From positions 4,702-68,701 of the forward strand of contig JAZUMP010000056.1 in assembly GCA_045603725.1 (NCBI GenBank): DNA of 64,000 nt, written 5' to 3'. The notes under the pieces are model-generated. The model worked only from the letters and a program-made list of their open reading frames with translations, was not told the DNA's origin and ran no database searches. Origin of the DNA: Christensenellaceae bacterium. GTDB taxonomy: Bacteria; Bacillota; Clostridia; Christensenellales; Borkfalkiaceae. Position 1 is the first letter of the stretch, and the number at the start of each line of letters is the position of its first letter. Positions 593 through 18,322 of this stretch are shown in pieces. A program made the position numbers and the translations under genes.

Positions 593-1369
593 TTACAAAA
601 GTTCTGCTTTAATAAATATTTCGGTTATAGTTTTTATGTTGTTCTTAACCTTTTTAAACGGGCGCATTGCATAGTAATACGCAAGATATGAAAGTTTAAT
701 TTTATCAACGTCTCCACCGATAATCTCGTCTTCAAAAACACTTAATACGTATCTTAACTCTTCTTTCTCATCGTCAGACAATCTACTTTGTGAAATTGAA
801 AGTTTATCTAAATCAATAAGCCTTCTAATTGTAGCGTAATCTTCATTTTTATTTGTAATAATCGAATATTTTTCAGGTTTTTCTATTTTGTTAGACGAAT
901 GAGATTCATTATCAAACGACTCAACGTTTTCAATTTCTTGAGAGCCACTAATCATTTGTAAACCAATGTTTTGGGTGTAAATTTTAAATGGAAGTAAAAC
1001 TTCACTGCTAAAGTTTTGATAAGACGTTTCATAATTTTTACCACCGTCAAAAAAATCTAAAAGGTCAGCAAGTTGAAGATTTTTATAATTAATTTCTTTA
1101 AGTATCGTATAAACAAGTGCTAAAACTTCGGTTGAATCATTAGGAAGTGTAAAATATTTAACTCCGTCCTGCATATAAAAAGCGTTAGATAATGAAGTTG
1201 CAAAATCATAATCTTCCGTGAAATAATTAAAAATATCTGAAAGTAATTTTGAAGAATTAATTGCAGTTAAAACTTCAAAAATACACGGCGATGCAAGCAA
1301 ATATTTTGAAGCCATTAATTTATCTAACAAATTACAAAAATTATTTAATGATTCTTCTCTCGTTTTCAT
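593..1369 (-). CDS. Hypothetical protein, 258 aa, no recognisable motif
   Basis: Long ORF located 10 nt downstream of the glucokinase start region. I recognise no family. Confidence 0.5.
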   Translation of the reverse strand: MKTREESLNNFCNLLDKLMASKYLLASPCIFEVLTAINSSKLLSDIFNYFTEDYDFATSLSNAFYMQDGVKYFTLPNDSTEVLALVYTILKEINYKNLQLADLLDFFDGGKNYETSYQNFSSEVLLPFKIYTQNIGLQMISGSQEIENVESFDNESHSSNKIEKPEKYSIITNKNEDYATIRRLIDLDKLSISQSRLSDDEKEELRYVLSVFEDEIIGGDVDKIKLSYLAYYYAMRPFKKVKNNIKTITEIFIKAELL

Positions 1370-2682: not shown

Positions 2683-3645
2683 TTAAATATCTATTTTATT
2701 TAAAAGTTGCTCGTCGTTTTGCCTAAGTTCTTTAGGAATAACTATATCATCAAACGTCATATAGTATTTTTTACAAGTAAGCGTATAATAATCAACAAAT
2801 CTTAACGATTTAAATATTATGCCGGATAGCGGTACAGCAAGAACGAACGCCACGTTAAACGTAACTATACTTGAAACTATAACTACAACGTATACCACGA
2901 AAGAAGTTATTAAATAAGATAAAAACCTATTAAAACTTTCTTGTAAGCGTAAGTATTTAAAAGAAATTTTAAACGCTTCAAACGGACCTTTATTTTCACA
3001 AATCATTATCGGCAATACAAGACCTGTTACAGTAAGCCTTAGCGCAATTGCCATAAATAATACTAATACGAGAAGGGATAATGAGTATATACCCAAAAAA
3101 TCCATAAACGTAAAGAATAGTAATGACATTAACCCCGCAACAATAATGTCGTAAATAAACATTAGTAAGGTTCTAAATAACGCGTATTTAGATGCCATTT
3201 TAAAATTTTCAAACAGCGTAGTAAAAAAACCTGCGTGAAGCATACTTGACATATGCTCGTTAATATTTACACCAACAACGTAATCAAACATTGAAAATAT
3301 AAATTTAACGATTTGGAATAAAACTACGATACCAACGCCAACCCAAATAATATTTGCAAGCATTGAATGAATATAGGCAATAAACGAAGTAGTAGTATCT
3401 TTAATTAAAACGGCGTTTAAATCAGAATTAGAATCCTTAAACAAAATAAAATCGCTTACAATTTTACGAACTGCGTCGATGAGTGATTTTAGTTCTGCAC
3501 TTTTCAAAATAGGCTCAATAATAATATTAGCCATAAAATATAATGATACGATAAAAGCAATTACAACAATAGACTTTGCAAGCATAGTCTTAAGCCATAA
3601 AGACTTGTTTGAAATTGCTATTTTAACACCGTTTGTAATCTTCAT
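2683..3645 (-). CDS. Multi-pass integral membrane protein of unknown family
   Basis: 320 aa with several long hydrophobic segments. It has its own TTGCAA-N17-TATAAT promoter in the 3646-3725 gap. Confidence 0.6.
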   Translation of the reverse strand: MKITNGVKIAISNKSLWLKTMLAKSIVVIAFIVSLYFMANIIIEPILKSAELKSLIDAVRKIVSDFILFKDSNSDLNAVLIKDTTTSFIAYIHSMLANIIWVGVGIVVLFQIVKFIFSMFDYVVGVNINEHMSSMLHAGFFTTLFENFKMASKYALFRTLLMFIYDIIVAGLMSLLFFTFMDFLGIYSLSLLVLVLFMAIALRLTVTGLVLPIMICENKGPFEAFKISFKYLRLQESFNRFLSYLITSFVVYVVVIVSSIVTFNVAFVLAVPLSGIIFKSLRFVDYYTLTCKKYYMTFDDIVIPKELRQNDEQLLNKIDI

Positions 3646-3725: not shown

Positions 3726-4634
3726 TTATCCTTTTACGTGCCCTTTTTTAGTTATGTACGCTCTAACAGTAGGCGCTAAATCTCCAAGAAGCCTTTGAAT
3801 TTCATAATCGCTTTCAAATTCGCTTACCGCTTTATCTTTATCCATAGAAAAATAATATTCTAAAGCGTTTTGTAAAACTTTTTTTTCAACTTCACGAAGT
3901 TCAGGAATTGGACCGTCTAAAACGTAAGTAGGAATTACTCCACTATCTATCAATTCCTTTCTCTTTAGTTCTAAATTTTCGATATTGTCTTCAATATCTT
4001 TTAACTTTTGTTCTTCTAAAAGATTTACAATTTTTTCGTGGCGAGTTTGCTCTTTAAGTACACTGTTTTCATTATTTTTTAGTTCTATATCCGTTTCAGC
4101 GTTAAGATTATCTAGTTTTGCGTTTTTAGCGTCTTCGTATTTTTTATTTTCAGAAGAAACTATACTAGAGCGCCCAACACCGTTTTTTATAGCCTTATTA
4201 GTTGCCCTATTAACGTAATCTTTAAAATCGCTATTTATTTTATTAGTTTCCATTTCGTTGTTTGCCAAAATCGACTGTTTTTTAAAGTTTAAATTGTCAA
4301 TATTCGTGTCATTTTTATGATTTTCACTAATAAGTTCTTTTTGAAAAGCAGTTTCAGCAATTTCATTTGCTTGCTTTTCAATATTTTCATCGGTATATTT
4401 ACTATCTCTGAAATTTTCTAAATCGTATTTTACTTGATTCTCAATTCTCTCAATTTCTTTATTGAATTTGAGCAAATCGCTTTTTAGGCTTTCTCTTGAA
4501 GGCTTGTCCGACTCTTTTTTAGCCACGGTATAAACGGCTACTTCTTCTCCTTTTTTACTATCGTCTTTTTTAACGACGGGTATTATCTTCTGATTTTCCA
4601 GCCATTTTTTTATTTTTTCTTCAATGTTAAACAT
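3726..4634 (-). CDS. Coiled-coil, K/E/N-rich protein; last gene of the phage-like operon; function unknown
   Basis: 302 aa, lying 11 nt downstream of the preceding ORF. The sequence is heptad-like and charged. Confidence 0.45.
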   Translation of the reverse strand: MFNIEEKIKKWLENQKIIPVVKKDDSKKGEEVAVYTVAKKESDKPSRESLKSDLLKFNKEIERIENQVKYDLENFRDSKYTDENIEKQANEIAETAFQKELISENHKNDTNIDNLNFKKQSILANNEMETNKINSDFKDYVNRATNKAIKNGVGRSSIVSSENKKYEDAKNAKLDNLNAETDIELKNNENSVLKEQTRHEKIVNLLEEQKLKDIEDNIENLELKRKELIDSGVIPTYVLDGPIPELREVEKKVLQNALEYYFSMDKDKAVSEFESDYEIQRLLGDLAPTVRAYITKKGHVKG

Positions 4635-4645
4635 GTTACTCCTTT

Positions 4646-4864
4646 TTATATAATCGTAATTAAGTCTCTTATTCTTTTTAAGGTTTTACCGTCGTATAAA
4701 ACAATTTTTTCTTCACAGTAATCAATAAGGGTTTTTTCGCCCGCTTTATCGTTTACAACGGATTGTTTATACAAACAATTACCATCAGAAAATTCCACTT
4801 CAATTACTCCGTTATTATTTTTTATATGATAATTTTTTCCGTATTTAATATTGACCATTCTCAC
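4646..4864 (-). CDS. Small hypothetical protein in the phage-like operon
   Basis: 72-aa ORF in operon context with a ggag-type SD. Confidence 0.4.
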   Translation of the reverse strand: MRMVNIKYGKNYHIKNNNGVIEVEFSDGNCLYKQSVVNDKAGEKTLIDYCEEKIVLYDGKTLKRIRDLITII

Positions 4865-4903
4865 AACCTCTTTTAGCGGTATTTTTGATTTTATTTTGGG
4901 GAA

Positions 4904-5809
4904 TCAATCGGTAACGAGTTTGGCATTAGAATACTTATCTACAACTATCATACTGCCGTTTGACGTATTATCAGTGTAAAGTTTTACTCCGGTTTTACCC
5001 GTACTAATATAATTAAAACTAAAACTTAAACTGCAACTGCCTTTATAAATTTTAGAAAGTTTTGAAAAGTAAATAATAAAATTATTTCCATTTTTATAAC
5101 CACAAGCAGAAGTTACACCTACTACGTTTAAGGAATTCTCAGTATACGTTTTATTTTCTAAATCAACCTTAATAATTTTAAGTTCATCATTAATTGTTAT
5201 TGCTAGAATATATAGAAAAATATCGTTAACCGATATAATAGAACACTCTTTTAAATCGTTGAAAGTTAAAGTATTATGCAAAATTGAAGTGTAATAGCGA
5301 TAAAGACTTGCAGTGTTATCTTTTAAATGAAGTACGTAGTCAACGTTGTTATAATAATAATGCGATAAACTATTAACGGAATTAACGTAAGAAACGTTAC
5401 CGCTAAGTTTAAAATTTAAAACTTCTAAAACGGTAATTTCACCGCTAGAAATTTCAACAACGATTTCATTTATACCCTCGTTAAACGACGCTTCAAAATT
5501 AAAAGAGTGCTTTTTAGTTAAACGGCTTTTCACAGTATAAGCAACAACTCCGTTGACGTAAACGTACATATCAACCAAAAACAAAGTGCTAAGTGAAGTT
5601 TCTAAATTTCCACTTATACTATAAACTCCATTTTTTAATGAATTTACTTTAAACGACTTTTTAAAATTTTTGTTTTTATCAACGCCACTTAAATCGTAAA
5701 ATAATTCAGAATATACTGATTGCATCGCAAAATTTTCAAGTTTTTCTATTCTCTTTTCAAGACTGTTCAGTTTTAAATAAGCACGCTTTCCATAATCTTC
5801 AGTTACCAT
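4904..5809 (-). CDS. Putative fibre or receptor-binding-like structural protein
   Basis: The N-terminus has a short coiled coil (LNSLEKRIEKLEN) followed by a long beta-rich region. It overlaps the upstream ORF by 7 nt. The call rests on architecture only. Confidence 0.3.
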   Translation of the reverse strand: MVTEDYGKRAYLKLNSLEKRIEKLENFAMQSVYSELFYDLSGVDKNKNFKKSFKVNSLKNGVYSISGNLETSLSTLFLVDMYVYVNGVVAYTVKSRLTKKHSFNFEASFNEGINEIVVEISSGEITVLEVLNFKLSGNVSYVNSVNSLSHYYYNNVDYVLHLKDNTASLYRYYTSILHNTLTFNDLKECSIISVNDIFLYILAITINDELKIIKVDLENKTYTENSLNVVGVTSACGYKNGNNFIIYFSKLSKIYKGSCSLSFSFNYISTGKTGVKLYTDNTSNGSMIVVDKYSNAKLVTD

Positions 5810-7239
5810 AAACTCTCCTTAACGTAACTAAAGAAAAACGTTGGTTTTAAAATTTCCGGCTTTTTAGAATAGGATATAATTTTAAACTTAAATGTATTAC
5901 CTTTAAAGTTGGTTTTTAAAACGCTTGTCCCACTACTTACGTTATATATATTTGTTTTACCATCCACGATTACGTGAAGAATAATATCTTCGTTTGACGT
6001 TAATCTGATTTTGTCAAGTTTCTTTTTATTAGTCTCTATTGAAAAGTCAGTCTCTCCACTTATCCATACCTTTTTTAATGGTTTAGAAAATCTTTTGCCA
6101 CTATTATCAATCAAACATATTTTCCCGTTTGATATAGCGTAAACGTTATAATCTTTTCCTAAAATCAATTCAAAATCGTCTATTTTAAGACCTTTTGCCA
6201 AATAAGCAACTTTAGAATCAATATCGTAAACTAAAATTACCTTTTCAATTTTAGATTTAAACTTCATATTAAGGCTCAAATAAAGTTTACCGTTATAAAA
6301 AACACCTTTAGCGTCGTCGTTTTCTACGCCGTTTAAAAATCTATCGTAAAAGGGTAAAATTTTTACGGCGTCAATACCGTTAAACCTATAAAGCCCAGAT
6401 GAAGTTAAAAATATAACGTAACCACCACATTCAGTAACGGTATTTGCATAAATTTTACCAATATTATTATATAAATTATCTACGGAAAACTCCGTTTGGT
6501 CGCCATATGCGTAAATTCTAGATATTCCGTAAGAGCGAAAAACGAAAACGTAATCTAAAAAACTAACTACTTTTAAAAGTTTTCCACGCTCGTCAGGAAG
6601 TTCAATATACCCTGCTTCGTCGAGAGAAACCGACCAATTAGTCGGGTTAAAATCGTCGGAAAACCAAAGCGAAGTTCCCTCACCTGAAGTCGTAGCAAAA
6701 AGTCTTTCGCTATGAATACACATAGAACTTATTTTTGGCGCTGTTTCAACTTTTTCTAGCGTAGTATTATTCAATATATATAACCCTTCCTTTTCAAAAG
6801 AAAGAATTAAAACGTCTTCATCGGAAAAGTTGTAATTAATAGCAATCGGTGGAGCCAAAAAAGTATTTGACGATATTAGTTTAAAAGTTGAGTCTAATCC
6901 TATATTAATATAATACAGTCTTTTATCACTACCGAACACTACTATTCTATCAGTATTTAGATTAAGTGAAGCGTCGTATCTTTTGTAGTAATAGAGTTTT
7001 ATAGGCGTTACGTCGCTATTAAAAGTAACGCTTTTGCCGTTTATAAGATATTCTTTAATTCCTATTCCGGATTTTAACGTTCCATCAGAACAATCAAAAT
7101 TAAAAAGTATAGAAGCATCGGTAGGATTGGAAAGCATTTCATCAGATGAAATGCTTCCTTTAGTTAAAAACGAATTTAAAGAAATTTTTCTTTTCGTTAC
7201 GCTAGGCAGTTTTAACTTTGTATCGTAAATCATTGCCAA
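5803..7239 (-). CDS. Large beta-rich structural protein; possibly a propeller or 'stabilisation'/nozzle-like podovirus tail component
   Basis: 478 aa with repetitive beta-strand-like segments. It sits after the capsid and adaptor-size genes. Assignment is by size and position only. Confidence 0.3.
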   Translation of the reverse strand: MAMIYDTKLKLPSVTKRKISLNSFLTKGSISSDEMLSNPTDASILFNFDCSDGTLKSGIGIKEYLINGKSVTFNSDVTPIKLYYYKRYDASLNLNTDRIVVFGSDKRLYYINIGLDSTFKLISSNTFLAPPIAINYNFSDEDVLILSFEKEGLYILNNTTLEKVETAPKISSMCIHSERLFATTSGEGTSLWFSDDFNPTNWSVSLDEAGYIELPDERGKLLKVVSFLDYVFVFRSYGISRIYAYGDQTEFSVDNLYNNIGKIYANTVTECGGYVIFLTSSGLYRFNGIDAVKILPFYDRFLNGVENDDAKGVFYNGKLYLSLNMKFKSKIEKVILVYDIDSKVAYLAKGLKIDDFELILGKDYNVYAISNGKICLIDNSGKRFSKPLKKVWISGETDFSIETNKKKLDKIRLTSNEDIILHVIVDGKTNIYNVSSGTSVLKTNFKGNTFKFKIISYSKKPEILKPTFFFSYVKESLW

Positions 7240-7796
7240 ACCCTACCTTTTAACCTTTTACTCTTACCCGTTAACGGCCCGTTTTTTAATGCGTTTATAT
7301 ACTTTCCATGCCATAAATTTGCTTCTTCATAGCCACCTTTAATTAAAAAGTATTCCGTTAAAACTCCGTAGCAAAGTATTCTATCAGTAATACAAGTATT
7401 ATCATAATCGCTTATATCATCTAACTTTTTATAACTAGGCACATAATAATACTCAACTAAAACTTCGCTAGCGTTAACTACAATTTCGCTTGGTAAAATT
7501 TTAGCGTTTACTTTATTGCCTTTATCGTCTTTTACCGAAATAACCGCAAGCGGATTTTTTGAAAAATCCGCCATTTTAATTATGCCACCAGATTTAGGAG
7601 AAAGCCTTTCGGTAGTTTTAAATCTATAGTATAAAGACGCAATTTCTCCCCCAACTACGTTATAGCAGTTTACGAGTAGGTTTACGTCGTCTAAAACGCT
7701 TAAATAGTTTTCGGTGGCACCCGTGTTTAAATACTCAAGAATATCTTTTCTATCTAAAAATAGTGCAACCTTTTTAACAATATCTTTTACCGTCAT
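7230..7796 (-). CDS. Putative head-completion or head-tail adaptor protein
   Basis: 188 aa, located immediately downstream of the capsid gene. Confidence 0.3.
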   Translation of the reverse strand: MTVKDIVKKVALFLDRKDILEYLNTGATENYLSVLDDVNLLVNCYNVVGGEIASLYYRFKTTERLSPKSGGIIKMADFSKNPLAVISVKDDKGNKVNAKILPSEIVVNASEVLVEYYYVPSYKKLDDISDYDNTCITDRILCYGVLTEYFLIKGGYEEANLWHGKYINALKNGPLTGKSKRLKGRVWQ

Positions 7797-7816
7797 AAAT
7801 TCTCCTTAAAATCTTT

Positions 7817-8989
7817 TTACGCTTCGGTAATACCCGTAAGCATTGCTTGACCACAAGGTCTTGAACAAATAAGGTCAGCGTATTTAACGAGCGTAGCCTT
7901 ATATACCGGTTTATCGGCAACTTGCTTTATAACCTTACCGTCTTCACCTTCAAGCCACTTCCAATCACATAATTGATGAAGTATAAAGTCGTCGGTATTA
8001 AGTAAATACATAGTACCTTCCGGACAGAAACGGTCTGAAACGATAGGAATACCGTTATAAGAAAGCGCTTTATATCCACCGTTTAAATCCATTACGTCAA
8101 TATTTCTTTTATAAGTAGATAAATGGTTTTGGAATGCTCTTTTAACACCACTTGAACAAATAATGAAGTTAACTCTAGAACCTGCGTTTTCGTCAAGATA
8201 GTCAATAGCCGTTTGAATAGCAGTTTCAGAAATTTCACCCACGTTACTTTTAATATATGGAATTAACCATTTATGAGTGCTTCTATCTAGACCGTAAATT
8301 TCGCCAGTCGTTTTAAATATTGCACCTAAACCCGTAATTTCTTGATTGTAAGAACCTTGAACAGTGATAATACTATCTTTAGGAACGTTAGTTGACGTTA
8401 ATGAAGTACCTGTAACGCTAACGGTTTTCGCGCTTCTATCAACCGAAATAATTCTTCTTTGAGTAGCGCCTGAAATTGTAGTGCCGTCTGCATTTCTAAA
8501 GTCAACAACCATACCTTCAACTAGGTTTTTAACGTTGTCAACGGTTACTACGCCGTTAGCAATAGAAACTACTTTAGAAAGAACGCCAGAGCCGTCGCCA
8601 AACAACATTCTTCCAAAATTATATGAAGATGCTCTAAGTAAGCCTTCCATTTCGGCGTTTAATAAGTTAACGAAAGCACCTGAACTATTTTCCGAAGCCC
8701 TAATTGCCTTATCGCTAATTTCAATAGTACCATAAAGGTTTTTTAACGTTAAAATAAATTGTTCGTAATTATTACCTGCGGCTTCTGGAAGAGCACCGTC
8801 TTCATCACCAGCACCAATACCACCGTTTAATCCGTATTGAGCAAGCCTTCTAATTTCTTTACCCCAAACGTCTTGAGTAGACTGTTTGATTTTAGCAAGT
8901 AAAGGATTTATAGCGGTATTGAGTTGTTCTGAAACCACCCCGAGATATGCGGATTTTAATGCTTCATCGGCTGTTTTCATTGTAATCAT
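7817..8989 (-). CDS. Phage major capsid protein (HK97-fold type, scaffold-dependent)
   Basis: 390 aa, directly after a scaffold-like gene with an ATGA overlap. The sequence style (...GLDRSTHKWLIPY..., ...GTMYLLNTDDFILHQL...) is typical of HK97-like capsid families. Confidence 0.7.
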   Translation of the reverse strand: MITMKTADEALKSAYLGVVSEQLNTAINPLLAKIKQSTQDVWGKEIRRLAQYGLNGGIGAGDEDGALPEAAGNNYEQFILTLKNLYGTIEISDKAIRASENSSGAFVNLLNAEMEGLLRASSYNFGRMLFGDGSGVLSKVVSIANGVVTVDNVKNLVEGMVVDFRNADGTTISGATQRRIISVDRSAKTVSVTGTSLTSTNVPKDSIITVQGSYNQEITGLGAIFKTTGEIYGLDRSTHKWLIPYIKSNVGEISETAIQTAIDYLDENAGSRVNFIICSSGVKRAFQNHLSTYKRNIDVMDLNGGYKALSYNGIPIVSDRFCPEGTMYLLNTDDFILHQLCDWKWLEGEDGKVIKQVADKPVYKATLVKYADLICSRPCGQAMLTGITEA

Positions 8990-9648
8990 AAATTAATATT
9001 CTCCTTAGATTTTTCAAAAATTTGCCGTGCTAAATTACCTGCATCGGCAAGGCTTTTAGGCGTTGACGGTGGCGACACGGTCGCCAATCCGTTGCCTGAA
9101 ATTAGCTTGATAGCCGGTTTAGAGTTTTCAATTTCACTTAAATACTCTTTTATTATTTGGTTTTTAAGTTCTTCGTTTGAGTTAACGGCATTTTTTACGT
9201 AGTCTATTGAATTAAAATAATTAATTTTATCTTCGTAATTTTTAGTTAACTTCTTTAAATACGCTCGACCAAGCCATCCTTTGCTATCGTCGCTATACAA
9301 GGCGGTATCGTATAGCGACTCGAAATCTTCTTCAGCATCTGGAAAAATCTCTAGAAATGCCTTTCTTTCCCACTCACGCCCGTCAAATAAAGAATCACTA
9401 AGCGATTGTTCTTTTTTAACTTGCGAATTTTCCCTTTCCAACTCCTTAACTCTCTGACAGCGTCTGGTAAATTCAGATTGCAAGGCGTTGTAAGCGTTAA
9501 GAAGGGATTTAACATCTTTAAACTTGCCTAAATCTTCAGTCGCGCCTAAATCACTTTCTGCCACTGCAGTTTGCGCCGAATCATTTTTTATAGTTTTAGC
9601 CGTTAAATTCTCCTTAATTTCTCCCGCTGCAATATTATTTGTTTCCAT
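8986..9648 (-). CDS. Putative scaffolding protein
   Basis: 220 aa, acidic and helical/coiled-coil, lying between the portal and the capsid. No prohead protease gene is present. Confidence 0.5.
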   Translation of the reverse strand: METNNIAAGEIKENLTAKTIKNDSAQTAVAESDLGATEDLGKFKDVKSLLNAYNALQSEFTRRCQRVKELERENSQVKKEQSLSDSLFDGREWERKAFLEIFPDAEEDFESLYDTALYSDDSKGWLGRAYLKKLTKNYEDKINYFNSIDYVKNAVNSNEELKNQIIKEYLSEIENSKPAIKLISGNGLATVSPPSTPKSLADAGNLARQIFEKSKENINL

Positions 9649-11533
9649 TTAACTCATCAATCCCCTTTAATATTTCCTTTTTTAAAAGGTAGTTTTTATG
9701 TTCGCCGTAATGCTTTTTAAGCCTTTTTGCAAACTCGTAATTTTTATCAATATTAACGTCTTCTTCAAGTATTTTTCTTAAATGTTCTTCTAAGTGAACT
9801 TCGTGGTTATCGTAATCGTCTACAACCACTTCACTTTCTAACATGTCAATATTTTCCTTTTCGGCTTTGCTTCTATGCATACTTGCTAAATCTTGCGCAT
9901 TGTCAAGCGAACCATAACCTAAAATTTCTAAAATTTTACCTTTAGTTCTTAAACTAATAACTCCGTTATCGTCGCCTAAAAGCCCCGTTCTTAACATTTC
10001 GAGCATAGCAGTTTTCTTTTGTGCAGGCGTTTGAGAAATTTCATTTTCAGTATCAAAAACCACGTCGTCTGAAGAAATATCACTCGCTTTAAAGTAAAAT
10101 AATTTAACTAGTTTTGCATTGCCTGCGTTTTTCATAATTCTAGTAGACGTTGCAAATTGTTTGTATATTCTTAAAATATGTTTTGCAATATCTTTAACAG
10201 CGTTTCTAACGCTATCGGCAGTTACCGATAAACGCGTTTCGTCTTGCTCGATTAAAAGTTCAAGCGCCACGCCCGACATAGTAGGGTCGCCAAGATTATA
10301 ACTTCTTGAAATTTCGCTCGTTCCAGAAATTGATACGAATTCGTTATAAAGCCTTTCTTCTTCATACGTAAAGTCTGCAGGAACGGAATTGCTATTCATT
10401 ATTTCAGGAGGTCTTGCACCCTGCCTATAAACTATAACCTTACCGGGCGACAATCCTTCGTCAATTAGTTCTTCCGTATCAACCGAGCCGTCTTCAACCT
10501 TTAAAACACCCATACTAATACGGTTCATAAACTCGTATTTTCTATTTTTTACGGCGTTATACGCTCTTTGAAGTGGAATTAATCTTTCAATAATACTTTC
10601 ACCAAAGAAATTCCCTGCTCTATTAAGAGCCGTTTGTTTTACGAACGGAAAAGTTCTTCTTAATTCAACGCCGTTTTTATACGGGAGTTCACCGTCGAAT
10701 AAAAGTGCGTCTTTAGTAACAATAATTAACCTACCGTTTGGATATTCACTATTTGGAGCAACGTATTTTTCTAAAACAAGTGCGTGATTTTTTAAGGTTG
10801 AAGAAATTTTTTTAGTAGAGTTTAAATTTAATAAATTATCTTCGGTTTTATTTAAACTAAAAACGTCTAACTCTTCACCTATAACTCTTTTACCGTACAG
10901 TTCGTAAATCGTATCAGCGTCTACTGCCCTTGCATGAATTAGACTTTTTAAATCTTCTATTTCACTTTTAAAAATAGAGTCTGGAAAAATTTCAAAGGGA
11001 GAAATTGCCGAAACTTCCACGTCGCCTTCCTTAATTTCCAACCCGTCTTTTTCGCCTAAAACTTTACCTTTTTTATCGTTCCAAGTTATCTTATAAAACG
11101 CAGTACCTAACGATTCCGACCAAACGGTAGCGTCTTTTATAACTTTATCAAGTGATATTCTTTGATAAGTAGAATTTAAAATTTCAGTTGATATTTCAGC
11201 AGTTTTTAAATCTTTATCTTCTCCACCCGACGCTCTTACCGACATACTAGGCCTAACTCTAGAAAGTTTAGCAAGCCTAGTATCTATAATCGGCGCGATG
11301 TGATTAAACACGCTTCTACTTTGCCAACCGTAATACTTTTCTTCTTCCTTAACTTCGCCCATTAAATCAACTTCGCAGTATTGATTTCCAGATAAATAAT
11401 TAAGATTTAATTTCCATTGTCTTTCAAGAAATTTTCTTTCTTCTCTTCGCCTTTCAAAATCCTCAAAAACACTCATTATTATTTGTTTTTCTAAATTGCT
11501 ATCTAATAGTTCTTTACTTAGCGTTTTCATCAT
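9635..11533 (-). CDS. Phage portal protein
   Basis: 632 aa, positioned between the terminase and the scaffold. The N-terminus carries ...ERQWKLNLNYLSGNQY..., a pattern seen in portal families. Confidence 0.7.
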   Translation of the reverse strand: MMKTLSKELLDSNLEKQIIMSVFEDFERRREERKFLERQWKLNLNYLSGNQYCEVDLMGEVKEEEKYYGWQSRSVFNHIAPIIDTRLAKLSRVRPSMSVRASGGEDKDLKTAEISTEILNSTYQRISLDKVIKDATVWSESLGTAFYKITWNDKKGKVLGEKDGLEIKEGDVEVSAISPFEIFPDSIFKSEIEDLKSLIHARAVDADTIYELYGKRVIGEELDVFSLNKTEDNLLNLNSTKKISSTLKNHALVLEKYVAPNSEYPNGRLIIVTKDALLFDGELPYKNGVELRRTFPFVKQTALNRAGNFFGESIIERLIPLQRAYNAVKNRKYEFMNRISMGVLKVEDGSVDTEELIDEGLSPGKVIVYRQGARPPEIMNSNSVPADFTYEEERLYNEFVSISGTSEISRSYNLGDPTMSGVALELLIEQDETRLSVTADSVRNAVKDIAKHILRIYKQFATSTRIMKNAGNAKLVKLFYFKASDISSDDVVFDTENEISQTPAQKKTAMLEMLRTGLLGDDNGVISLRTKGKILEILGYGSLDNAQDLASMHRSKAEKENIDMLESEVVVDDYDNHEVHLEEHLRKILEEDVNIDKNYEFAKRLKKHYGEHKNYLLKKEILKGIDELNGNK

Positions 11534-11714
11534 TTTTCTCCTTAACCTTATATACTTTAGTTAAAACTTTTAATACGCCCAAAGCACATTTGGGGCACAA
11601 TTTTAAACTGTCGTATAGTTTAGAATTTTCGCTTTTTTTAATATAGTATTCGGCTAAATTATTACACCCTACTATATCGCAAACTACGCTTGGTTTTAAA
11701 TTTTCAATTTGCAT
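11514..11714 (-). CDS. Small CxxC...CxxC zinc-ribbon protein
   Basis: Contains CDIVGC...CPKCA. 66 aa, overlapping the portal start. Confidence 0.5.
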   Translation of the reverse strand: MQIENLKPSVVCDIVGCNNLAEYYIKKSENSKLYDSLKLCPKCALGVLKVLTKVYKVKEKNDENAK

Positions 11715-11715
11715 A

Positions 11716-12000
11716 TTAAATCTCCTTATTTTCTATTTTTTTTAAAAGTTCTAGAAGTCGGATTTTCTCTTTTTCTAGTTCTTCATCAGATAAAGTTTTT
11801 AAATCTTGTTCACCGTCAAGTTCAACTAAGAGTTTTACCGCTGAAACGTCGGGTGGAACGTTTTTTGAAACAACTTTTTTCTTAACCATACGAACACCGC
11901 CTTCATCGTCTCCAACGTATTCTTCGGTTATTTCTTTGGCTTCGTAGCCAATAGCCCTTTTATAAAGAGCGTCTTTTACGTCGTTATTATCCGTAGCCAA
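11716..12000 (-). CDS. Terminase small-subunit-like fragment: C-terminal motif only, with no HTH domain
   Basis: LYKRAIGYEAKE...KKKVVSKNVPPDVSAVKLLVE resembles the conserved C-terminal A-x-GY...K-x-x-PPD-x-x-A block of Firmicute phage TerS proteins. The protein is only 94 aa and lies downstream of TerL, not upstream. Confidence 0.45.
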   Translation of the reverse strand: MATDNNDVKDALYKRAIGYEAKEITEEYVGDDEGGVRMVKKKVVSKNVPPDVSAVKLLVELDGEQDLKTLSDEELEKEKIRLLELLKKIENKEI

Positions 12001-13420
12001 TACCTCCTTTACTTCTCCTTGCTTTTCTAATTAAACGCTGTTTATCTTTTTGTACGTCAGTTAAAATTTTAGTGGGTTTATCTACGTGTGGTTTAGTCAT
12101 TATGTAATAGCGAAGTTCGTCAAGCGAATGGTCGTTGCGCTTAACCGGCATATCGTTATTACCCCATCTATAACCCTTTAATTCTTTAATCATGCTTACA
12201 CAGTTTTTAAAGATAAAAATTTTATTGTTTTTAAAAAAGCATTTAACCCTATTAATTCCAGTAAATAAATCCTTATTTACGTTTGTTGACAGATTAATTC
12301 CGTTTTCATAAAAAAGTTCGGAAACGGATTTAGAATAAGCAAGCGTTTTTTGATTTGCAGCCGAATCGATTATTCCTTTTAACTTACCCGAAAAATCCTT
12401 ATGCCAATTAAGTTCGCTCGCAATAGCCTTGATTTTATTTGCGTGAGTTTCTACATCTAGCCCCGCTTCGTAATGCTCTGCAACGACGTAAACGTTTCCA
12501 TCGTAATCAACGGCGTAAAAATGGCAAGAAAGTGGATTTTTAAGACCTGGGTCAATAGATATCATATCTTGCCAATCGCTAGGCACTGTAAAAGGCTCTA
12601 TAACGTGTACGTTTTCATCAAACTCGTAGTATACGGGCCCCGTATCTTCAAAGAACCTTCCGTATCTTCGCGATTCAAGTTCGCGCTCAGATAAACTACT
12701 TGTTAGCGCTTTTATCTCTTTTTTACTCAAATATGGATTATCTGCCCACTCTATAAATTCGTACCAAACGTCTTTAGAGTTATTTGAGTTTAAAAATATT
12801 TCGTCGTAAATAAAAGTTAAGCCTTTAAGTGGAGTCATCGTGCCGAAAATATCTCCACGCTTATCTAATACGCGCATACGGCACTCATCGTAAATATCTT
12901 TAGGTGGTTCTTCATCAAACCACACAAAGTCTAGAGAACTGCCTTGAAATTTTTCACGACCTTGGTCGCAACTTTTAAAGCCTATTACCGATACGCCACC
13001 TAGTACGTTTTTTATTTTTATTTGGTCGATAACCCCTGAGCGAGGGCTATCTTTTTTACCCGAAAGCATCGTAATATCAATAATCCAATCCGGGTTTAGA
13101 TATTTTAAAATTTTATCTTGGGCAACGTCTCGCTGAACTTGTTGCGATAGTGAAACCACCCAACCAAAAACTGATTTTTTATTTTTTCTATAAGGATGTA
13201 TTCCCCTTGCCATATATACGGCTTCGACTGCACCACACTCGGTTTTCCCACTTCTATTTCCACCAAAAACCCATCTATTTCGCTTTTTACACTTGTGAAA
13301 TTTGAGTTGCTTTTTATGCACCTTTTTACCCGTGTTATATCGTAAAAGAGTATTGTTTTCGTATCTTCTTAACTCTTCCATTTCTATTTGTTTTAACTTT
13401 TTAATAATTTTTTCTTGCAT
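11987..13420 (-). CDS. terL: Terminase large subunit
   Basis: Walker A GGNRSGKT (aa 53-60), Walker B LDFVWFDEE (aa 163-171) and a TMTP coupling motif are present. The C-terminal nuclease-like part contains ISIDPG... and ...IIDSAAN. Confidence 0.85.
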   Translation of the reverse strand: MQEKIIKKLKQIEMEELRRYENNTLLRYNTGKKVHKKQLKFHKCKKRNRWVFGGNRSGKTECGAVEAVYMARGIHPYRKNKKSVFGWVVSLSQQVQRDVAQDKILKYLNPDWIIDITMLSGKKDSPRSGVIDQIKIKNVLGGVSVIGFKSCDQGREKFQGSSLDFVWFDEEPPKDIYDECRMRVLDKRGDIFGTMTPLKGLTFIYDEIFLNSNNSKDVWYEFIEWADNPYLSKKEIKALTSSLSERELESRRYGRFFEDTGPVYYEFDENVHVIEPFTVPSDWQDMISIDPGLKNPLSCHFYAVDYDGNVYVVAEHYEAGLDVETHANKIKAIASELNWHKDFSGKLKGIIDSAANQKTLAYSKSVSELFYENGINLSTNVNKDLFTGINRVKCFFKNNKIFIFKNCVSMIKELKGYRWGNNDMPVKRNDHSLDELRYYIMTKPHVDKPTKILTDVQKDKQRLIRKARRSKGGIGYG

Positions 13421-13493
13421 ATGACTAAATACACCATAAAAGTAATTAATTTTACAAATTTTACTACGCTATAAAAGTTATAATTATTTAACT

Positions 13494-14225
13494 ATGAAAA
13501 AACTGTTAACTTTTTTATTTTCGGTTTATGCATTAGGTTTTATTTATCTAACACCTATAAATACTTATAAAGCCGAGTCGGAAATTTATATGCGCGTATT
13601 ATCAAACGGCGTATACGTTTATTCCGACAATAATTTAACTAATAAATTGTTTGAAATTCCATACGGTTACTACGTTAAAGTAGAAAACGTTAGTGGAAAC
13701 ACCGTGCGTGTTACGTACGGCAATAATAATGAAAATTACCCTGTTATTATGGGTTATTGTAAAAAAGAAGAATTAACTGAAATTACGTACACGCCCAATA
13801 AACCGTTTACAGTCATTAAAGTTTCAACTTCGCTTAGCGACGTTTTGTTTAACGACCCAAATTTATCAAAGGCGTATTTCAACGTCCCGGAAAATACCTT
13901 TATGTATTATTACGGCGAATATAAATCTATTAGTGGGAATAATATTTGCTACGTTTATTGCAATAATAAACTTGGCTATTTTGACGTTACGTGCCTAAAC
14001 CCATTTACAGTACCAGAAAGCCCTGACGTTATCGAAACTCCAAATGAAAACGAAAACAAGGAGCAGAGTCCGCAAGAAGAAAACAAAAAACCGAACTCGC
14101 TCCCTGCCGAAAGTTTACAAATTATTATAATTATAGGATTATCGGTAATATCAATATCAATAGTTTATTACCTATTTAAACCAAGTAAACAAAAAACCGA
14201 AAAGCAATTTTTTAATGAAGAATAA
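13494..14225 (+). CDS. Membrane-anchored SH3b-domain surface protein
   Basis: It has a signal peptide (..TYKA/ES) and an SH3b-like segment (YMRVLSNGVYVYSD...GYYVKVENVSGNTVRVTYG). A P/E/N-rich linker and a C-terminal TM helix (IIIIIGLSVISISIVYYLF) follow. Confidence 0.6.
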   Translation: MKKLLTFLFSVYALGFIYLTPINTYKAESEIYMRVLSNGVYVYSDNNLTNKLFEIPYGYYVKVENVSGNTVRVTYGNNNENYPVIMGYCKKEELTEITYTPNKPFTVIKVSTSLSDVLFNDPNLSKAYFNVPENTFMYYYGEYKSISGNNICYVYCNNKLGYFDVTCLNPFTVPESPDVIETPNENENKEQSPQEENKKPNSLPAESLQIIIIIGLSVISISIVYYLFKPSKQKTEKQFFNEE

Positions 14226-14696
14226 TCAATCTATAACGTGTTTTTTACCCATTTCATTTATAGTTTTTTGATAAATGCCGGCAATGTAAGAAATTTTTAA
14301 ATACTTATCTAAAAACCACTTTTCGTCGTAACCTTTAGAATTTAAAATTTTATCGAATTTCTCAATAGCGCGATTTTGTTTTCTAAAATAATTTCTAGAT
14401 TTTAAATCAAAATTTTCATCTTTAGGTAAAATGCCAAAATATTTGTAATAAATAAGCGTTCTGTCGGTTTCACTTAAAACCTCGAGCGCTTCTTTTGTTA
14501 TTTGCTTTAACTCTAATAAATCAAATTTCACTTCGTTAAGTTTAATAATCTTTTCAGCCTGAGAATACGTTGACGTATAATTAAAAAAGGAATTTTTAAC
14601 CTTGCTTTTAATTAAATTCTCAATTTGCATTACGACTTTATCTAAAGTTCGATAACAAGACAACATAGTTTTTCCGTAACAACTCATACCTTTCAC
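14226..14696 (-). CDS. Putative sigma-70 region-4 / ArpU-like late-gene transcriptional regulator
   Basis: 156 aa. The C-terminal segment LSETDRTLIYYKYFG...RNYFRKQNRAIEKF resembles region 4 of small phage sigma-like activators. The gene sits just upstream of the terminase block on the same strand. Confidence 0.35.
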   Translation of the reverse strand: MKGMSCYGKTMLSCYRTLDKVVMQIENLIKSKVKNSFFNYTSTYSQAEKIIKLNEVKFDLLELKQITKEALEVLSETDRTLIYYKYFGILPKDENFDLKSRNYFRKQNRAIEKFDKILNSKGYDEKWFLDKYLKISYIAGIYQKTINEMGKKHVID

Positions 14697-14712: not shown

Positions 14713-14742
14713 ATTATATAGCCTTTTCGCTACAAATTTCAA
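14713..14742 (-). promoter_or_regulatory. Sigma-A-type promoter for the 14226..14696 regulator
   Basis: On the minus strand: TTGAAA, then 16-18 nt, then TATA(TA)AT. It lies about 20 nt upstream of the SD ggaggtg. Confidence 0.5.
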
Positions 14743-14747
14743 TCGTA

Positions 14748-14807
14748 TATGACAATTTTAAACAAAATAATTTTAATTTTTAACATTTTTGTTTAAATTA
14801 TGTCATA
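14748..14807. promoter_or_regulatory. Large imperfect inverted repeat with TATGACA half-sites; operator-like
   Basis: TATGACAATTTTAAAC (14748-14763) faces GTTTAAATTATGTCATA (14791-14807). It directly abuts the -35 of the regulator promoter. Confidence 0.4.
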
Positions 14808-14812
14808 TTCTG

Positions 14813-14851: not shown

Positions 14852-14865
14852 CGAACATTTGTTCG
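14852..14865. promoter_or_regulatory. LexA (Cheo/SOS) box, CGAACATTTGTTCG
   Basis: Perfect match to the Gram-positive LexA operator dyad CGAAC-N4-GTTCG. It lies about +5 to +18 relative to the 14813-14840 promoter. Confidence 0.65.
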
Positions 14866-14888
14866 TATATATAATAAAAAAATAAATA

Positions 14889-14903
14889 TGACAAGAACTG
14901 TCA
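14889..14903. promoter_or_regulatory. TGACA-N5-TGTCA palindrome; a second operator-like site
   Basis: tgacaagaactgtca uses the same half-site as the 14748-14807 repeat. Confidence 0.35.
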
Positions 14904-17619: not shown

Positions 17620-18048
17620 TTATTTTCTTAAAAAAATTCTTTTAAATCCGTTGCGGATTTTTCTAAAAATTCTAAATTTAGCATAAGTATTTTTATATAT
17701 CTTGTATTTTATTGATTTATCAAAATCAATATATTTATCGTATTTATAGTAGCCTTTTACTACGCCTAAAATTTGCGACGGTTTAACGCCGTATTCAAGC
17801 GTAGTGTGATTATCACCACAAAGCACGTATTCATCGCCCTTTATAGCCATTATACGGTGTAAAACGTATAAACCTGACTCACGCTTATAAAGTATAATAT
17901 CGCCCTTTTTGAGCGAAATTTCAGGCTTGTAGGAGTATATGCAAACTTTATCGCGCCCTTCAACGAAAATTGGGAGCATACTAGTTCCCTTAAACTCCAT
18001 ACAAACAAAGCCTATTTCATTTAAGGCATTTTCTAAATTATTCATCAA
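17620..18048 (-). CDS. S24/S26-family peptidase domain protein; soluble, with no N-terminal TM segment
   Basis: GTSMLP carries the Ser nucleophile motif. ...GDIILYK...VLHRIMAIKGDEYVLCGDN is an S26-like box with His or Lys. The C-terminal tail is basic. Confidence 0.6.
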   Translation of the reverse strand: MMNNLENALNEIGFVCMEFKGTSMLPIFVEGRDKVCIYSYKPEISLKKGDIILYKRESGLYVLHRIMAIKGDEYVLCGDNHTTLEYGVKPSQILGVVKGYYKYDKYIDFDKSIKYKIYKNTYAKFRIFRKIRNGFKRIFLRK

Positions 18049-18319
18049 TAGCCCCTATTTTATTAAGAGTTTCTATAACCCAATCAACGTCTTTTGAAGC
18101 GATTTCATAACTCACATCATACTCTTGTAAAAGCGCATTTATAAGTTCTTCCCTTGTCGCCCCGTCAATTAGTTTATTCCATAAAAATTCCGAAGTTTCG
18201 TTGAGCCTAATATAACCGCTAATATTTTTAGCGTACTTTCCAACAGCGATAACTACGGTCATCTCATTTTCAGTATTTTCGTTTAATTTTTTTAAAATAA
18301 ATTGCTTTCTAATTTTCAT
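18038..18319 (-). CDS. PqqD-family (RiPP recognition element-like) protein
   Basis: 93 aa. ...YIRLNETSEFLWNKLIDGATREELINALLQEYDV... matches the PqqD/RRE pattern. Confidence 0.7.
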   Translation of the reverse strand: MKIRKQFILKKLNENTENEMTVVIAVGKYAKNISGYIRLNETSEFLWNKLIDGATREELINALLQEYDVSYEIASKDVDWVIETLNKIGAIDE

Positions 18320-18322
18320 AAT

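Follow-up and report, generated by a model that had tools for sequence, protein, structure and literature searches.

Gene organisation of the locus

Eleven open reading frames (ORFs) lie on the minus strand at positions 3726-13420 of the window, the whole 64-kb stretch of DNA that was analysed. The ORF calls give a tightly packed operon, in which adjoining frames either overlap by 4-20 nt or are separated by 1-39 nt, with no exceptions. The original prediction had described eleven close-set frames here, and all of them are present where it placed them. It had also likened their composition to that of the neighbouring housekeeping genes, which agrees with a GC content of 34.6% for the module and 33.0% for the remaining window.

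The ORFs at 0.6-18 kb and 24-64 kb were scanned against Pfam and those at 18-24 kb were inspected by eye. The scan gave no match to an integrase, a repressor pair or replication genes, nor to a protease, tape-measure, tube, sheath, holin or lysin. As had been predicted, integrase, replication, lysis and long-tail genes are absent from the locus as far as the scanned ORFs go, and no such module was found contiguous with the block. Outside the module, the scanned stretches carry housekeeping genes (eg MetRS, RpoD, DnaG, EF-P, IF2, NusA and Rho), and beyond the short side of the window the syntenic relative L087 runs on into a ROK kinase, Dtd and similar genes. No att repeats were found around the block, and genes for mobility, replication or lysis were likewise missing from the related loci inspected. 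The module could be assigned neither a holin nor an endolysin, nor a clear receptor-binding protein.

The first gene (11987-13420) encodes the large terminase, TerL, with ATPase and nuclease domains (Terminase_6N, 3e-10; Terminase_6C, 5e-5; phrog_2, 1e-33). The motifs GGNRSGKT, LDFVWFDEE and TMTP are all legible in its translation, as had been reported. TerL is 62-82% identical across loci, is intact in all 63 complete copies and has a dN/dS of 0.045 against L087. The next gene (11716-12000) encodes a small-terminase-like (TerS-like) protein of 94 aa that matches phrog_309 (3e-7, confined to positions 197-240 of the 319-position profile) and phrog_23444 (8e-5). It had been taken for a fragment, a description that does not survive comparison; most of 62 loci keep the short length, at approximately 86-108 aa, and an alignment of 44 orthologues shows that length and sequence are both conserved. 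The protein has no recognisable DNA-binding domain and no PDB relative. Few genes of the module are as constrained as those for TerL and the short TerS, and packaging itself therefore appears to be selected.

A Cys4 Zn-ribbon protein of 66 aa (11514-11714) shows 35-48% identity within the near clade, and elsewhere an ORF of 60-67 aa occupies the same position. It is followed by a 632-aa portal of the P22/SU10 type (9635-11533; P22_portal, 3.5e-19; phrog_156, 1.9e-38), intact in 79 of 80 complete copies and with a dN/dS of 0.10 against L087. The acidic protein encoded at 8986-9648 has no match among Pfam or PHROG profiles and differs in length between lineages. It lies between portal and capsid, as do the scaffolds of P22 and phage Shocker, and from this position we infer that it is the scaffold. 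The major capsid protein (7817-8989) has the HK97 fold and is of the podovirus type, scoring 282 bits against the NCBIfam model NF033394 (capsid_maj_Podo, cutoff 80) and matching phrog_14242 (E = 1e-66) and SU10_MCP (1e-5). It has more than 6791 homologues, the best 120 of which are 76-100% identical to it. The gene is intact in 91 of 91 copies; its dN/dS is 0.056 against L087 and 0.01-0.07 in unsaturated pairs. The order terminase, two small proteins, portal, scaffold and capsid is that of the podophage Shocker.

The 188-aa protein encoded at 7230-7796 is probably the head-to-tail adaptor. This assignment follows from its size and position, which are like those of P22 gp4 between coat and gp10; one of 29 orthologues matches phrog_442 'head-tail adaptor' (E = 0.006), and the gene is intact in 75 of 75 copies. 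For the 478-aa protein (5803-7239), structure prediction identifies the nozzle or hub of a short, podovirus tail, like P22 gp10. Its AlphaFold2 model (pLDDT 88, pTM 0.87) was matched by Foldseek to the Pa223 tail (9nwi_Y, E = 5e-19, TM 0.73) and to P22 gp10 (8eap_D, 1e-13), with further matches to VP1 (8zkk_O), GP4 (8jov_A), SU10 (7z47_G) and T7 gp12. The protein also matches phrog_3287 'virion structural protein' (1e-9), and its gene is intact in 66 of 66 copies. Tail genes are thus not wholly absent: the claim that they were lacking stands for long-tail modules and fails for the short tail. Likewise the label 'capsid operon' was right about the capsid genes and too narrow for the particle, which would carry a podovirus nozzle.

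The 301-aa product of the following gene (4904-5809) is lectin-like. In its model (pLDDT 84) an N-terminal helix is followed by a beta-sandwich and a propeller-like domain; carbohydrate-binding modules, fucose lectins and phage fibre or virion proteins match it, but only partially and with low TM. The gene is among the fastest-evolving of the module, its slot varies in size, and it is missing from the eight-gene core of deep lineages; the protein is a candidate receptor-binding protein. A 72-aa protein without a family match (4646-4864; 30-62% identity in nearer clades) precedes the last gene (3726-4634), which encodes a Lys/Glu-rich coiled-coil protein of 302 aa belonging to DUF7934 (2.6e-11). 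This is the last universal gene of the module, kept even in deep lineages, where capsid identity is 46-57%, and its product has no PDB relative. By position it may be compared with RCH50844.1, the abundant 'TolA-like' particle protein of the Faecalibacterium element FpGTA, purely as an analogy.

Regulator and companion genes

The conserved unit is larger than 3726-13420, for it also includes a regulator and a divergent gene of 243 aa and, in many lineages, a 320-aa membrane protein and an 847-aa protein. The regulator (156 aa; 14226-14696, minus strand) resembles phage-type late transcriptional activators through the PHROG matches of its orthologues: 14 of 30 match phrog_36 'transcriptional regulator' (best 3e-7), seven match phrog_248 'transcriptional activator' and two match phrog_351 'sigma factor'. 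The protein has no Pfam or PDB match. In related loci its gene keeps both position and orientation, and its dN/dS against L087 is 0.11.

The 243-aa gene (13494-14225, plus strand) is divergent from TerL, with which it shares a promoter region of 73 bp; the topology of its product, read from the sequence, consists of a signal peptide and a C-terminal membrane anchor. Homologues (22-54% identity) lie on the opposite strand between regulator and TerL in 51 loci. The 320-aa polytopic membrane protein is encoded directly downstream of the module (2683-3645, minus strand), and homologues with 22-67% identity (67% in L087) hold this position in 19 loci, among them those of high-GC Borkfalkia-like genomes; it is absent in the loci L001-L006. 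The 847-aa protein (15020-17563, plus strand), secreted, membrane-anchored and beta-rich, is encoded divergently from the regulator and has homologues (23-67% identity, 67% in L087) at the same position in 15 loci, though not in all lineages. None of these three proteins has a family match.

An SOS box had been predicted at 14.2-14.9 kb. It is real: a LexA-type (Cheo) box, CGAACATTTGTTCG, can be read directly at 14852-14865, upstream of the regulator, and is the sole GAAC-N4-GTTC site in the 64 kb. A -10-like hexamer on the minus strand (TATTAT, 14871-14876) lies 5 nt upstream of it, so that the box would cover the transcription start of a distal regulator promoter. Of 34 non-redundant related loci, 21 have an exact box in the 350 nt before the regulator and 31 have one with at most one mismatch; the background rates per 380 bp are 0.006 and 0.13, respectively. 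The box is invariant in alignment A8 (11 loci). LexA would be expected to bind at this site, and the module is apparently under a DNA-damage (SOS) switch.

Just upstream of the -10-like hexamer, conserved columns in A8 mark a palindrome, TGACA-N5-TGTCA (14889-14903, minus strand). Related copies of TTGTCATAT occur at 14747-14755 (minus strand) and, with one mismatch, at 14800-14808 (plus strand); the exact TTGTCATAT occurs twice in the 64 kb, both times in the control region of the regulator. The palindrome is a candidate operator, possibly for the regulator itself. A proximal, sigma-70-like regulator promoter, TTGAAA-18-TATAAT (14713-14742, minus strand), is proposed from its consensus match, the best between 2.4 and 15.1 kb (11/12); its hexamers are conserved in A8.

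Distribution and inheritance

At least 579 species-representative genomes, most of them Christensenellales, have a relative of the capsid; the related genomes are mostly metagenome bins. Module gene order is identical in the 86 chromosomal loci fetched, and the module measures 9.7-11 kb. The loci span 30-65% GC, and module GC follows flank GC with r = 0.985, keeping step with the host over a range of 0.30 to 0.61. Synonymous divergence from L087 is equal in the module (0.5-2.1) and the flanking genes (0.9-2.1). Among complete copies the core genes are all single intact ORFs, the sole exception being one portal.

Shared flanks are lost gradually as capsids diverge: they occur in 100% of pairs whose capsids are at least 90% identical, in about 60% at 80-90% and in at most 3% below 75%. 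Even where capsids are no more than 46-57% identical, ispG-rimP-nusA-infB surround the core. Copies in close relatives always share flanks, flank proteins diverge faster than the capsid, and near-identical copies of the module did not turn up in different contexts. Among deposited phages, even the closest stay below 30% identity, and no complete phage with a close capsid was found in INPHARED or the inspected IMG/VR loci. In the four longest IMG/VR loci with a complete module, the module is followed by no more than a few unassigned ORFs before the contig ends; two further loci have TerL to capsid only, with defence genes downstream and the distal genes not found. In one clade of nine loci TerL does not adjoin the operon. 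With TerL detached in these nine and distal genes missing in those two, the system is not uniformly complete.

Taken across genomes, these patterns indicate that the module is inherited vertically under purifying selection and is neither a recent prophage nor a satellite. Close relatives carry the block at the same position, and selection on the related copies is not relaxed.

Discussion

The locus, which lies on the chromosome of a gut bacterium of the Clostridia, is probably an old, domesticated and vertically inherited remnant of a P22/SU10-like short-tailed phage, a gene-transfer-agent (GTA)-like 'viriform' of the order Christensenellales. The original prediction had proposed a domesticated, regulated and minimal podovirus-like or GTA-like packaging system, and the comparative evidence (gene order, GC, intactness, flanks and the LexA-type box) favours it; its other options, a satellite that had lost its mobility and a decaying remnant, are disfavoured. 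A possible route can be proposed. DNA damage would inactivate LexA and free the promoter whose start site lies under the box at 14852-14865. The 156-aa late activator would then be made and would switch on the 11-gene operon, presumably from the 73 bp that precede TerL. As in P22, no protease would be needed for portal, scaffold and capsid protein to assemble into a procapsid. The short TerS and TerL would fill the heads with whatever DNA was available, and as there is no phage genome at the locus this cargo would be the host chromosome. Published Christensenellaceae particles filled with host DNA lend indirect support to this step. The adaptor and the nozzle would finish the head by adding a short tail, binding to recipient cells would fall to the variable 301-aa protein, and release of the particles would need lysis functions located outside the window. 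The module would package and transfer DNA.

PBSX of Bacillus subtilis is under SOS control with a phage-type activator, and the predicted control of the module resembles it. The module might accordingly be a domesticated, SOS-induced particle that packages DNA incidentally, with delivery absent or irrelevant and with competitor killing, altruistic lysis or DNA release, or some other population-level effect as its selected role. The evidence of domestication serves this reading equally, and the receptor-binding protein is not firmly identified; a non-transfer role is also left open for FpGTA by its own authors (PMC12946183, Discussion). We nevertheless consider it unlikely, since packaging itself appears selected, a podovirus nozzle is a DNA-ejection device and not a contractile killing tail, and the module has no linked toxin or lysin. 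There is a small chance that the genes belong to a widespread temperate phage, or a fragment of one, moving horizontally among gut Clostridia with the remainder of its genome elsewhere or missed. Chromosomal neighbours do differ in deep lineages and capsid conservation is very high, but the constancy of flanks among close copies, the faster divergence of flank proteins, the agreement of module and host GC, and the lack of both displaced near-identical copies and a complete phage in the collections searched all speak against it.

Phage satellites are patchy and mobile. A capsid-forming satellite (cf-PICI-like) or other helper-dependent element, now immobile, would account for a compact head and packaging module without replication or lysis genes, and some IMG/VR pipelines call the locus viral. 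Its probability is nonetheless very low: integrase, primase or replicase, att sites and helper-interference genes are absent from every inspected locus, the module encodes its own nozzle, and it is inherited vertically across hundreds of species, with GC tracking the host and flanks co-diverging. That it is a decaying prophage of merely intact appearance is hardly credible. Lysogeny, replication and lysis modules are indeed lacking, and neighbouring TerL or distal genes are missing in some lineages; against this, core genes are intact in 63/63 to 91/91 complete copies (the portal in all but one) across genomes with saturated synonymous sites, capsid and TerL have a dN/dS of 0.01-0.1, and the regulatory DNA is conserved, a combination that requires selection.

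As a probable domesticated GTA-like element, the module is analogous to FpGTA of Faecalibacterium, a recently characterised podovirus-like operon of 10.5 kb (PMC12946183), from which it differs in capsid family. GTA-like packaging of host fragments of 4-7 kb has been described for Christensenellaceae metagenome-assembled genomes (HGM11616 and QANA01), in which the genes were not found (PMC12946183). Linked to them by taxon only, the module is a candidate source of these host-DNA particles of Christensenellaceae.

Composition of the operon

The eleven minus-strand ORFs of the phage-type module (window 3726-13420) all lie where the original prediction had placed them, and they adjoin each other by overlaps of 4-20 nt or gaps of 1-39 nt. 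Family searches named five of the eleven, ie TerL, a TerS-like protein, the portal, the capsid and a DUF7934 protein. TerL matched Terminase_6N/6C and phrog_2 (E=1e-33), and the Walker A, Walker B and TMTP motifs ascribed to it are legible in the translation. The 94-aa TerS-like protein (phrog_309, E=3e-7) had been described as a fragment, which it is not: most of its 62 orthologues are 86-108 aa long, and the 44 that were aligned are well conserved. It has no recognisable DNA-binding domain, since the TerS profile was matched in its internal part only. The portal is of the P22 type (PF16510, E=3.5e-19; phrog_156, E=2e-38); a Pfam match of this protein to 'mCpol' was discarded as spurious. The major capsid protein is of the podovirus type (phrog_14242, E=1e-66; NCBIfam NF033394, capsid_maj_Podo, 282 bits against a cutoff of 80). 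The DUF7934 protein (3726-4634, minus strand) closes the operon and is kept in every lineage, and a search of PDB sequences found no relative of solved structure for it. Family searches gave no prohead protease match among the module ORFs.

The 478-aa protein (5803-7239) was modelled with AlphaFold2 using 63 homologues as input (pLDDT 88, pTM 0.87). The best match to the model was the tail nozzle/hub of Pa223 (E=5e-19, TM 0.73), and VP1, GP4, P22 gp10 (8eap_D, E=1e-13), SU10, crAss001 and T7 gp12 were matched as well. Judged by its modelled fold, the protein is a podovirus tail nozzle/hub, and the element thus codes for a short tail as well as a capsid. The earlier picture of a capsid operon without long-tail genes holds, and has to be amended for the short-tail nozzle. 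A weak PHROG match of the same ORF to 'amidase' was discarded as spurious. The 188-aa gene (7230-7796, minus strand) sits between the capsid and nozzle genes, the place of the gp4 adaptor in P22, and its position suggests a head-to-tail adaptor; a PHROG scan of 29 orthologues gave one weak adaptor match. Profile searches of PDB sequences with alignments of the 188-aa, 478-aa, DUF7934, TerS and regulator proteins returned nothing usable, and hhalign comparison of the 188-aa and 478-aa profiles with P22 gp4, P22 gp10 and a protein of phage Shocker produced no match. As even the nozzle was missed, methods based on sequence lack the power needed here, and the assignment of the adaptor stays positional.

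The model of the 301-aa protein (4904-5809; pLDDT 84) places a beta-sandwich and a propeller-like domain after an N-terminal helix, and gave partial matches only, to carbohydrate-binding modules, fucose lectins and phage fibre/virion proteins. Its gene is among the fastest-evolving of the module and the size of its slot differs by lineage, both of which fit a putative receptor-binding protein. The product of this slot falls into size classes of about 155-160 aa (in a high-GC Borkfalkia-like group), 290-317 aa and 373-411 aa. The eight-gene core of deep lineages has no gene of this kind. In two related loci (L101 and L105) the slot is filled by proteins of about 800 and 680 aa. The module as a whole combines a P22-type portal, an HK97-fold capsid, a protease-free scaffold and a gp10-like hub, as in a P22-like head with a short tail.

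Surroundings in the window

Among the window ORFs scanned outside the module no integrase, repressor, replication, protease, long-tail or lysis match was found, in agreement with the reading by eye; the ORFs at 18-24 kb were judged by eye only. The integrase/recombinase, repressor switch, replication genes, lysis genes and att repeats of an intact temperate prophage are not contiguous with the module. The block is flanked by neither a tRNA gene nor an att-like repeat, the att search giving AT-rich chance repeats only. Its base composition is close to that of its neighbours, as had been noticed (34.6% GC in the module vs 33.0% in the rest of the window). On one side the window reaches no further than 3.7 kb past the operon; there L087, a fully syntenic near relative, runs into ordinary metabolic genes. 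On the other side, 24-64 kb holds the genes for MetRS, KsgA, TatD, RpoD, DnaG, EF-P, IF2, NusA, RimP, RbfA, TruB, IspG and Rho.

Three genes at 17620-19033 (minus strand), beside an 847-aa gene, code for a 142-aa S24-type-peptidase-like ORF, a PqqD-family protein and a weak ScmC-like protein; the set is syntenic in L087 and resembles a peptide-maturation cluster. A 6S RNA gene at 25104-25299 (plus strand; RF00013, 58 bits against a gathering score of 46.4) is the sole Rfam match in the window.

Regulation

The 156-aa regulator (14226-14696, minus strand) had no Pfam or PDB match. Among 30 of its orthologues, 14 match phrog_36 'transcriptional regulator', seven match phrog_248 'transcriptional activator' and two match a phage sigma-factor family, and we read the protein as a probable phage late-gene activator. 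A perfect CGAACATTTGTTCG lies at 14852-14865, 156 nt 5' of the regulator start codon; this LexA-type box is the sole GAAC-N4-GTTC site of the window. In a set of 34 non-redundant relatives with a regulator and enough upstream DNA, a box was found within 350 nt upstream of the regulator in 21 loci as an exact copy and in 31 with at most one mismatch, compared with a background per 380 bp of 0.006 for exact sites and 0.13 for sites with at most one mismatch. The distance between box and regulator is mostly 164-196 nt. The box belongs to the regulator because it is kept in L001-L003, related loci in which the upstream neighbour is a different gene. The linkage of the module to a dedicated regulator and an SOS box is thus borne out by the uniqueness of the site and by comparison; binding of LexA to it, and activation of the operon by the regulator, would be the predicted consequence.

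The layout of the region is conserved in eleven aligned upstream regions, which share the palindrome TGACA-N5-TGTCA, a -10-like hexamer that precedes the box by 5 nt, more copies of TTGTCATAT, and a second promoter (TTGAAA-18-TATAAT) adjoining the regulator gene. A canonical -35 element could not be assigned to the SOS-controlled promoter, the candidates TTGTCA and TTGACA being 12 and 22 nt from the -10-like hexamer; this pair is read instead as a putative palindromic operator. Copies of TTGTCATAT in the regulator upstream region lie at 14747-14755 (-), 14886-14894 (-) and 14800-14808 (+). The two exact copies in 64 kb are both in this region, which has one-mismatch copies too. Other one-mismatch copies are found over the TerL start codon (13419-13427, -) and upstream of a 258-aa gene (1419-1427, -). 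The window total of 25 one-mismatch copies vs 21 expected is no enrichment; the copies are nonetheless conserved across loci, many of which have (T)TTGTC(A/G) motifs ahead of the TerL start. TTGTCATAT may be a candidate operator of the activator or of another factor. Rfam detected no structured RNA in the regulator leader.

The 258-aa gene (593-1369, minus strand) has no family match and is kept downstream of the module in the near clade, with 45-64% protein identity (64% in L087). Its upstream region (1370-1537) has AT-rich likenesses of 17-29 nt to the regulator upstream region; the gene could belong to the same regulon, or the likeness could be chance.

Distribution and gene order

A word-indexed database returned more than 6791 capsid homologues, the best 120 of which are 76-100% identical, many on contigs of 100-675 kb; an exhaustive search gave 3382 clusters at 50% identity. 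Counting one genome per species, a capsid relative occurs in at least 579 species, and the best 80 of these are nearly all bins of Christensenellaceae, 'Clostridia bacterium' or Candidatus Borkfalkia, recovered from the gut of humans, ruminants and chickens. The related genomes are mostly metagenome bins. All 86 loci compared have the same order: regulator (+), a divergent gene (-), TerL, TerS, (Zn-ribbon), portal, scaffold, capsid, a protein of about 187 aa and a nozzle of about 400-480 aa. Measured against the window proteins, identity declines from the capsid (67-87%) towards the tail, with 62-82% for TerL, 41-73% for the portal and 20-57% for the distal proteins. Close lineages share their neighbouring genes; deep lineages differ in them, having yqfD-phoH-ybeY-era, thrS or ispG-rimP-nusA-infB.

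In deep lineages (loci L050, L067, L080, L085, L090 and L091; capsids 46-70% identical) an eight-gene core of TerL, TerS, portal, scaffold, capsid, the protein of about 187 aa, nozzle and DUF7934 is followed directly by ispG, an RNase_T/OB exonuclease gene, rimP, nusA, ylxR and infB. The same ispG to infB string is present in the window at 48731-56330, about 40 kb off the module, and the site beside ispG-rimP-nusA-infB may be the ancestral one. In a further clade (L054, L056, L061, L066, L068, L070, L073, L075 and L083), with capsids 68-71% identical to that of the window, the operon begins at TerS. A TerL profile derived from 59 orthologues fits no ORF in these loci of 7-21 kb; the gene has either been lost or lies at another place in the genome.

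IMG/VR holds 37 relatives, mainly on short contigs. Inspection of the seven longest loci revealed no surrounding phage genome in any of them. In four the module is complete and the contig breaks off there or no more than a few unassigned ORFs later, and in one the operon begins at TerS. The remaining two (L110, 6600-15300; L125, 5700-14600) have TerL to capsid only, followed by defence genes that replace adaptor and nozzle. One of these sets includes type I restriction-modification (HsdM, HsdR), and the other a WYL regulator, a C5 methylase, a GHKL ATPase and an Mrr-helicase.

Evolution and selection

Flanks are shared by all pairs of loci with a capsid identity of at least 90%, by about 60% at 80-90% and by at most 3% below 75%, and where flanks are shared their proteins diverge more than the capsid. 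The loci range from 30 to 65% GC, and the GC of the module follows that of its flanks (r=0.985). Compared with L087, dS is the same for the module (0.5-2.1) and the flanking genes (0.9-2.1), and dN/dS is 0.045 for TerL, 0.056 for the capsid, 0.10 for the portal, 0.12 for the nozzle, 0.14 for TerS and 0.23-0.32 for the other operon genes. For capsid pairs with unsaturated synonymous sites it is 0.01-0.07. High-GC pairs give inflated values because their dS is underestimated, and low-divergence pairs were therefore relied on and used for dN/dS. Complete copies are single intact ORFs in 91/91 capsids, 63/63 TerL, 79/80 portals, 75/75 of the 188-aa genes and 66/66 nozzles. Relaxed selection or, the one portal apart, inactivating mutations in related copies, which the original prediction would have counted against itself, were not found. 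The module is vertically inherited and has been under strong purifying selection for a long time. The same genes in genomes of 30-65% GC are a data set well suited to dating and analysing the domestication of a phage.

Relationship to known systems

The definition of a viriform asks for caudovirus-derived head, packaging and tail genes in a cell genome without replication, integration or lysogeny functions (PMC9662315). The module has such genes, and those functions are absent from the scanned ORFs of the 64-kb window and of the related loci; GC, dS, dN/dS and the decay of synteny point to a long shared vertical history of module and host lineage under purifying selection. Co-evolution of phage-derived structural and packaging genes with the host under such selection is shared with the alphaproteobacterial GTAs (RcGTA type) and with other recognised viriforms, among them BaGTA of Bartonella and VSH-1 of Brachyspira (definition of PMC9662315), as are host regulation (predicted here from the LexA-type box), the lack of replication and integration functions and a short TerS. 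RcGTA-type and BaGTA are siphovirus-like and VSH-1 is myovirus-like, with unrelated genes, whereas the module is podovirus-like. Control in those GTAs is of the CtrA/GafA type or other; the module is a single compact locus with an activator that is predicted to be controlled by an SOS box.

Among Gram-positive anaerobes, packaging of short host fragments in the manner of a GTA proved common when intact DNA from faecal virus-like particles was sequenced (PMC12946183, 2026). The same work describes FpGTA of Faecalibacterium prausnitzii, a 10.5-kb chromosomal operon of ten ORFs (PMC12946183; Nat Commun 2026;17:2046). Its products include TerL, a TerS that has no DNA-binding domain, portal, scaffold and capsid, together with a nozzle whose match is PDB 8eap and a 'TolA-like' protein present in abundance; fibre and lysis genes sit in a second locus 125 kb away. 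The particles measure about 40 nm, carry 8.4-8.9 kb of DNA each and were characterised by proteomics (PMC12946183). The module resembles FpGTA in being a chromosomal operon, about 10 kb long, of a Gram-positive anaerobe from the gut, in its TerS without evident DNA-binding domain, TerL, portal, scaffold-position protein, capsid and small or unknown proteins, in a P22-gp10-like nozzle that matches the same PDB entry (8eap, E=1e-13 here), in a Lys/Glu-rich 'TolA-like' protein at the end, in having no mobility or replication genes, and in being probably near-ubiquitous in its own clade (at least 579 carrier species counted for the module). The capsid of FpGTA is 'N4-gp56 family' by its NCBI name, whereas that of the module matches NF033394 only and not N4-gp56; the differing names argue against close relatedness of the two systems (FpGTA proteins RCH50849.1, RCH50851.1 and RCH50852.1). 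In FpGTA the portal follows TerL directly and two genes lie between capsid and nozzle; in the module TerS and a Zn-ribbon gene stand between TerL and portal, and a single gene between capsid and nozzle. The hosts belong to Oscillospirales and Christensenellales, respectively, and a linked LexA box and activator are described for the module but not in the FpGTA paper. FpGTA is known from particles, proteomics and cargo, the module from its genes. On family names and gene order we file the module as a new GTA-like/viriform system outside the FpGTA family; no description of its cluster was found in the literature searched.

The faecal data also include GTA-like events in Christensenellaceae (HGM11616 and QANA01), with read-length peaks of about 4.1, 6.3 and 7.1 kb; the genes behind them were neither sought nor reported, and LexA is unmentioned (PMC12946183). 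The module is a candidate gene set for these host-DNA particles, linked to those MAGs by taxon only, and its locus measures 9.7-11 kb vs the published peaks of about 4.1-7.1 kb.

Alternative explanations

The P22-type portal, podovirus capsid family, protease-free scaffold and (putative) adaptor-then-nozzle arrangement of the module are those of P22-like and SU10-like podophages and of Microbacterium phage Shocker, which has the same terminase-small-small-portal-scaffold-capsid order. These phages are complete, at 40-46 kb, with replication, lysis and fibre genes, and the closest deposited ones, ie actinobacterial podophages (Shocker and Arthrobacter phages), have capsids only 24-29% identical. 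Capsid-forming satellites (cf-PICIs) are, like the module, small islands with their own capsid, portal and terminase and no long tail. They have an integrase, att sites and a replication module, depend on a helper and use helper tails; searches for an integrase, for replication genes and for att sites came back empty for the module, which has a nozzle gene. Vertical inheritance under purifying selection strongly disfavours a prophage of recent origin, and equally a mobile satellite or a remnant in decay. That the module is a domesticated, selected particle-forming system is, in our judgement, highly probable.

The main rival of the GTA-like reading is a domesticated particle with another selected role, as in PBSX. 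PBSX of Bacillus subtilis is an SOS-inducible chromosomal defective-phage particle that has a small phage-type positive factor and packages fragments of host DNA. It differs in being a narrowly distributed, myovirus-like tailocin, contractile-tailed and equipped with lysis genes and a repressor of its own; the module has a short tail and no linked repressor or lysis genes, and is found across an order. PBSX served as a control in the faecal particle work (PMC12946183). The full GTA-like reading is favoured with fair confidence, less firmly than domestication as such. Under this GTA-like reading SOS induction would act through the activator, host DNA would be packaged headful by a sequence-unspecific terminase, adaptor and nozzle would close the filled head, the variable 301-aa protein would bind the receptor, and lysis genes located elsewhere would give release.

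Significance

To our knowledge, descriptions of GTA gene clusters from groups other than Alphaproteobacteria are few, and the only GTA-like clusters from Gram-positive bacteria that we know of are PBSX and, since 2026, FpGTA. We give an even chance to a joint reading in which an ancient podovirus was independently domesticated across Christensenellales and related Clostridia as a new viriform family, was linked directly to the host SOS response by its LexA box and by a late activator taken over from a phage, is the missing cluster behind the host-DNA particles of Christensenellaceae in human faeces, and, being induced by damage, provides one of the most heritable gut taxa with a major way of exchanging genes. 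The module is a concrete, testable candidate for the genes behind those particles, carried by hundreds of gut species from humans, ruminants and birds, and it comes with an unusually clear regulatory hypothesis, in which the LexA box would control the late activator and the activator the structural operon. If the system is functional, DNA-damaging drugs and inflammation could increase gene flow in the commensals that carry it.
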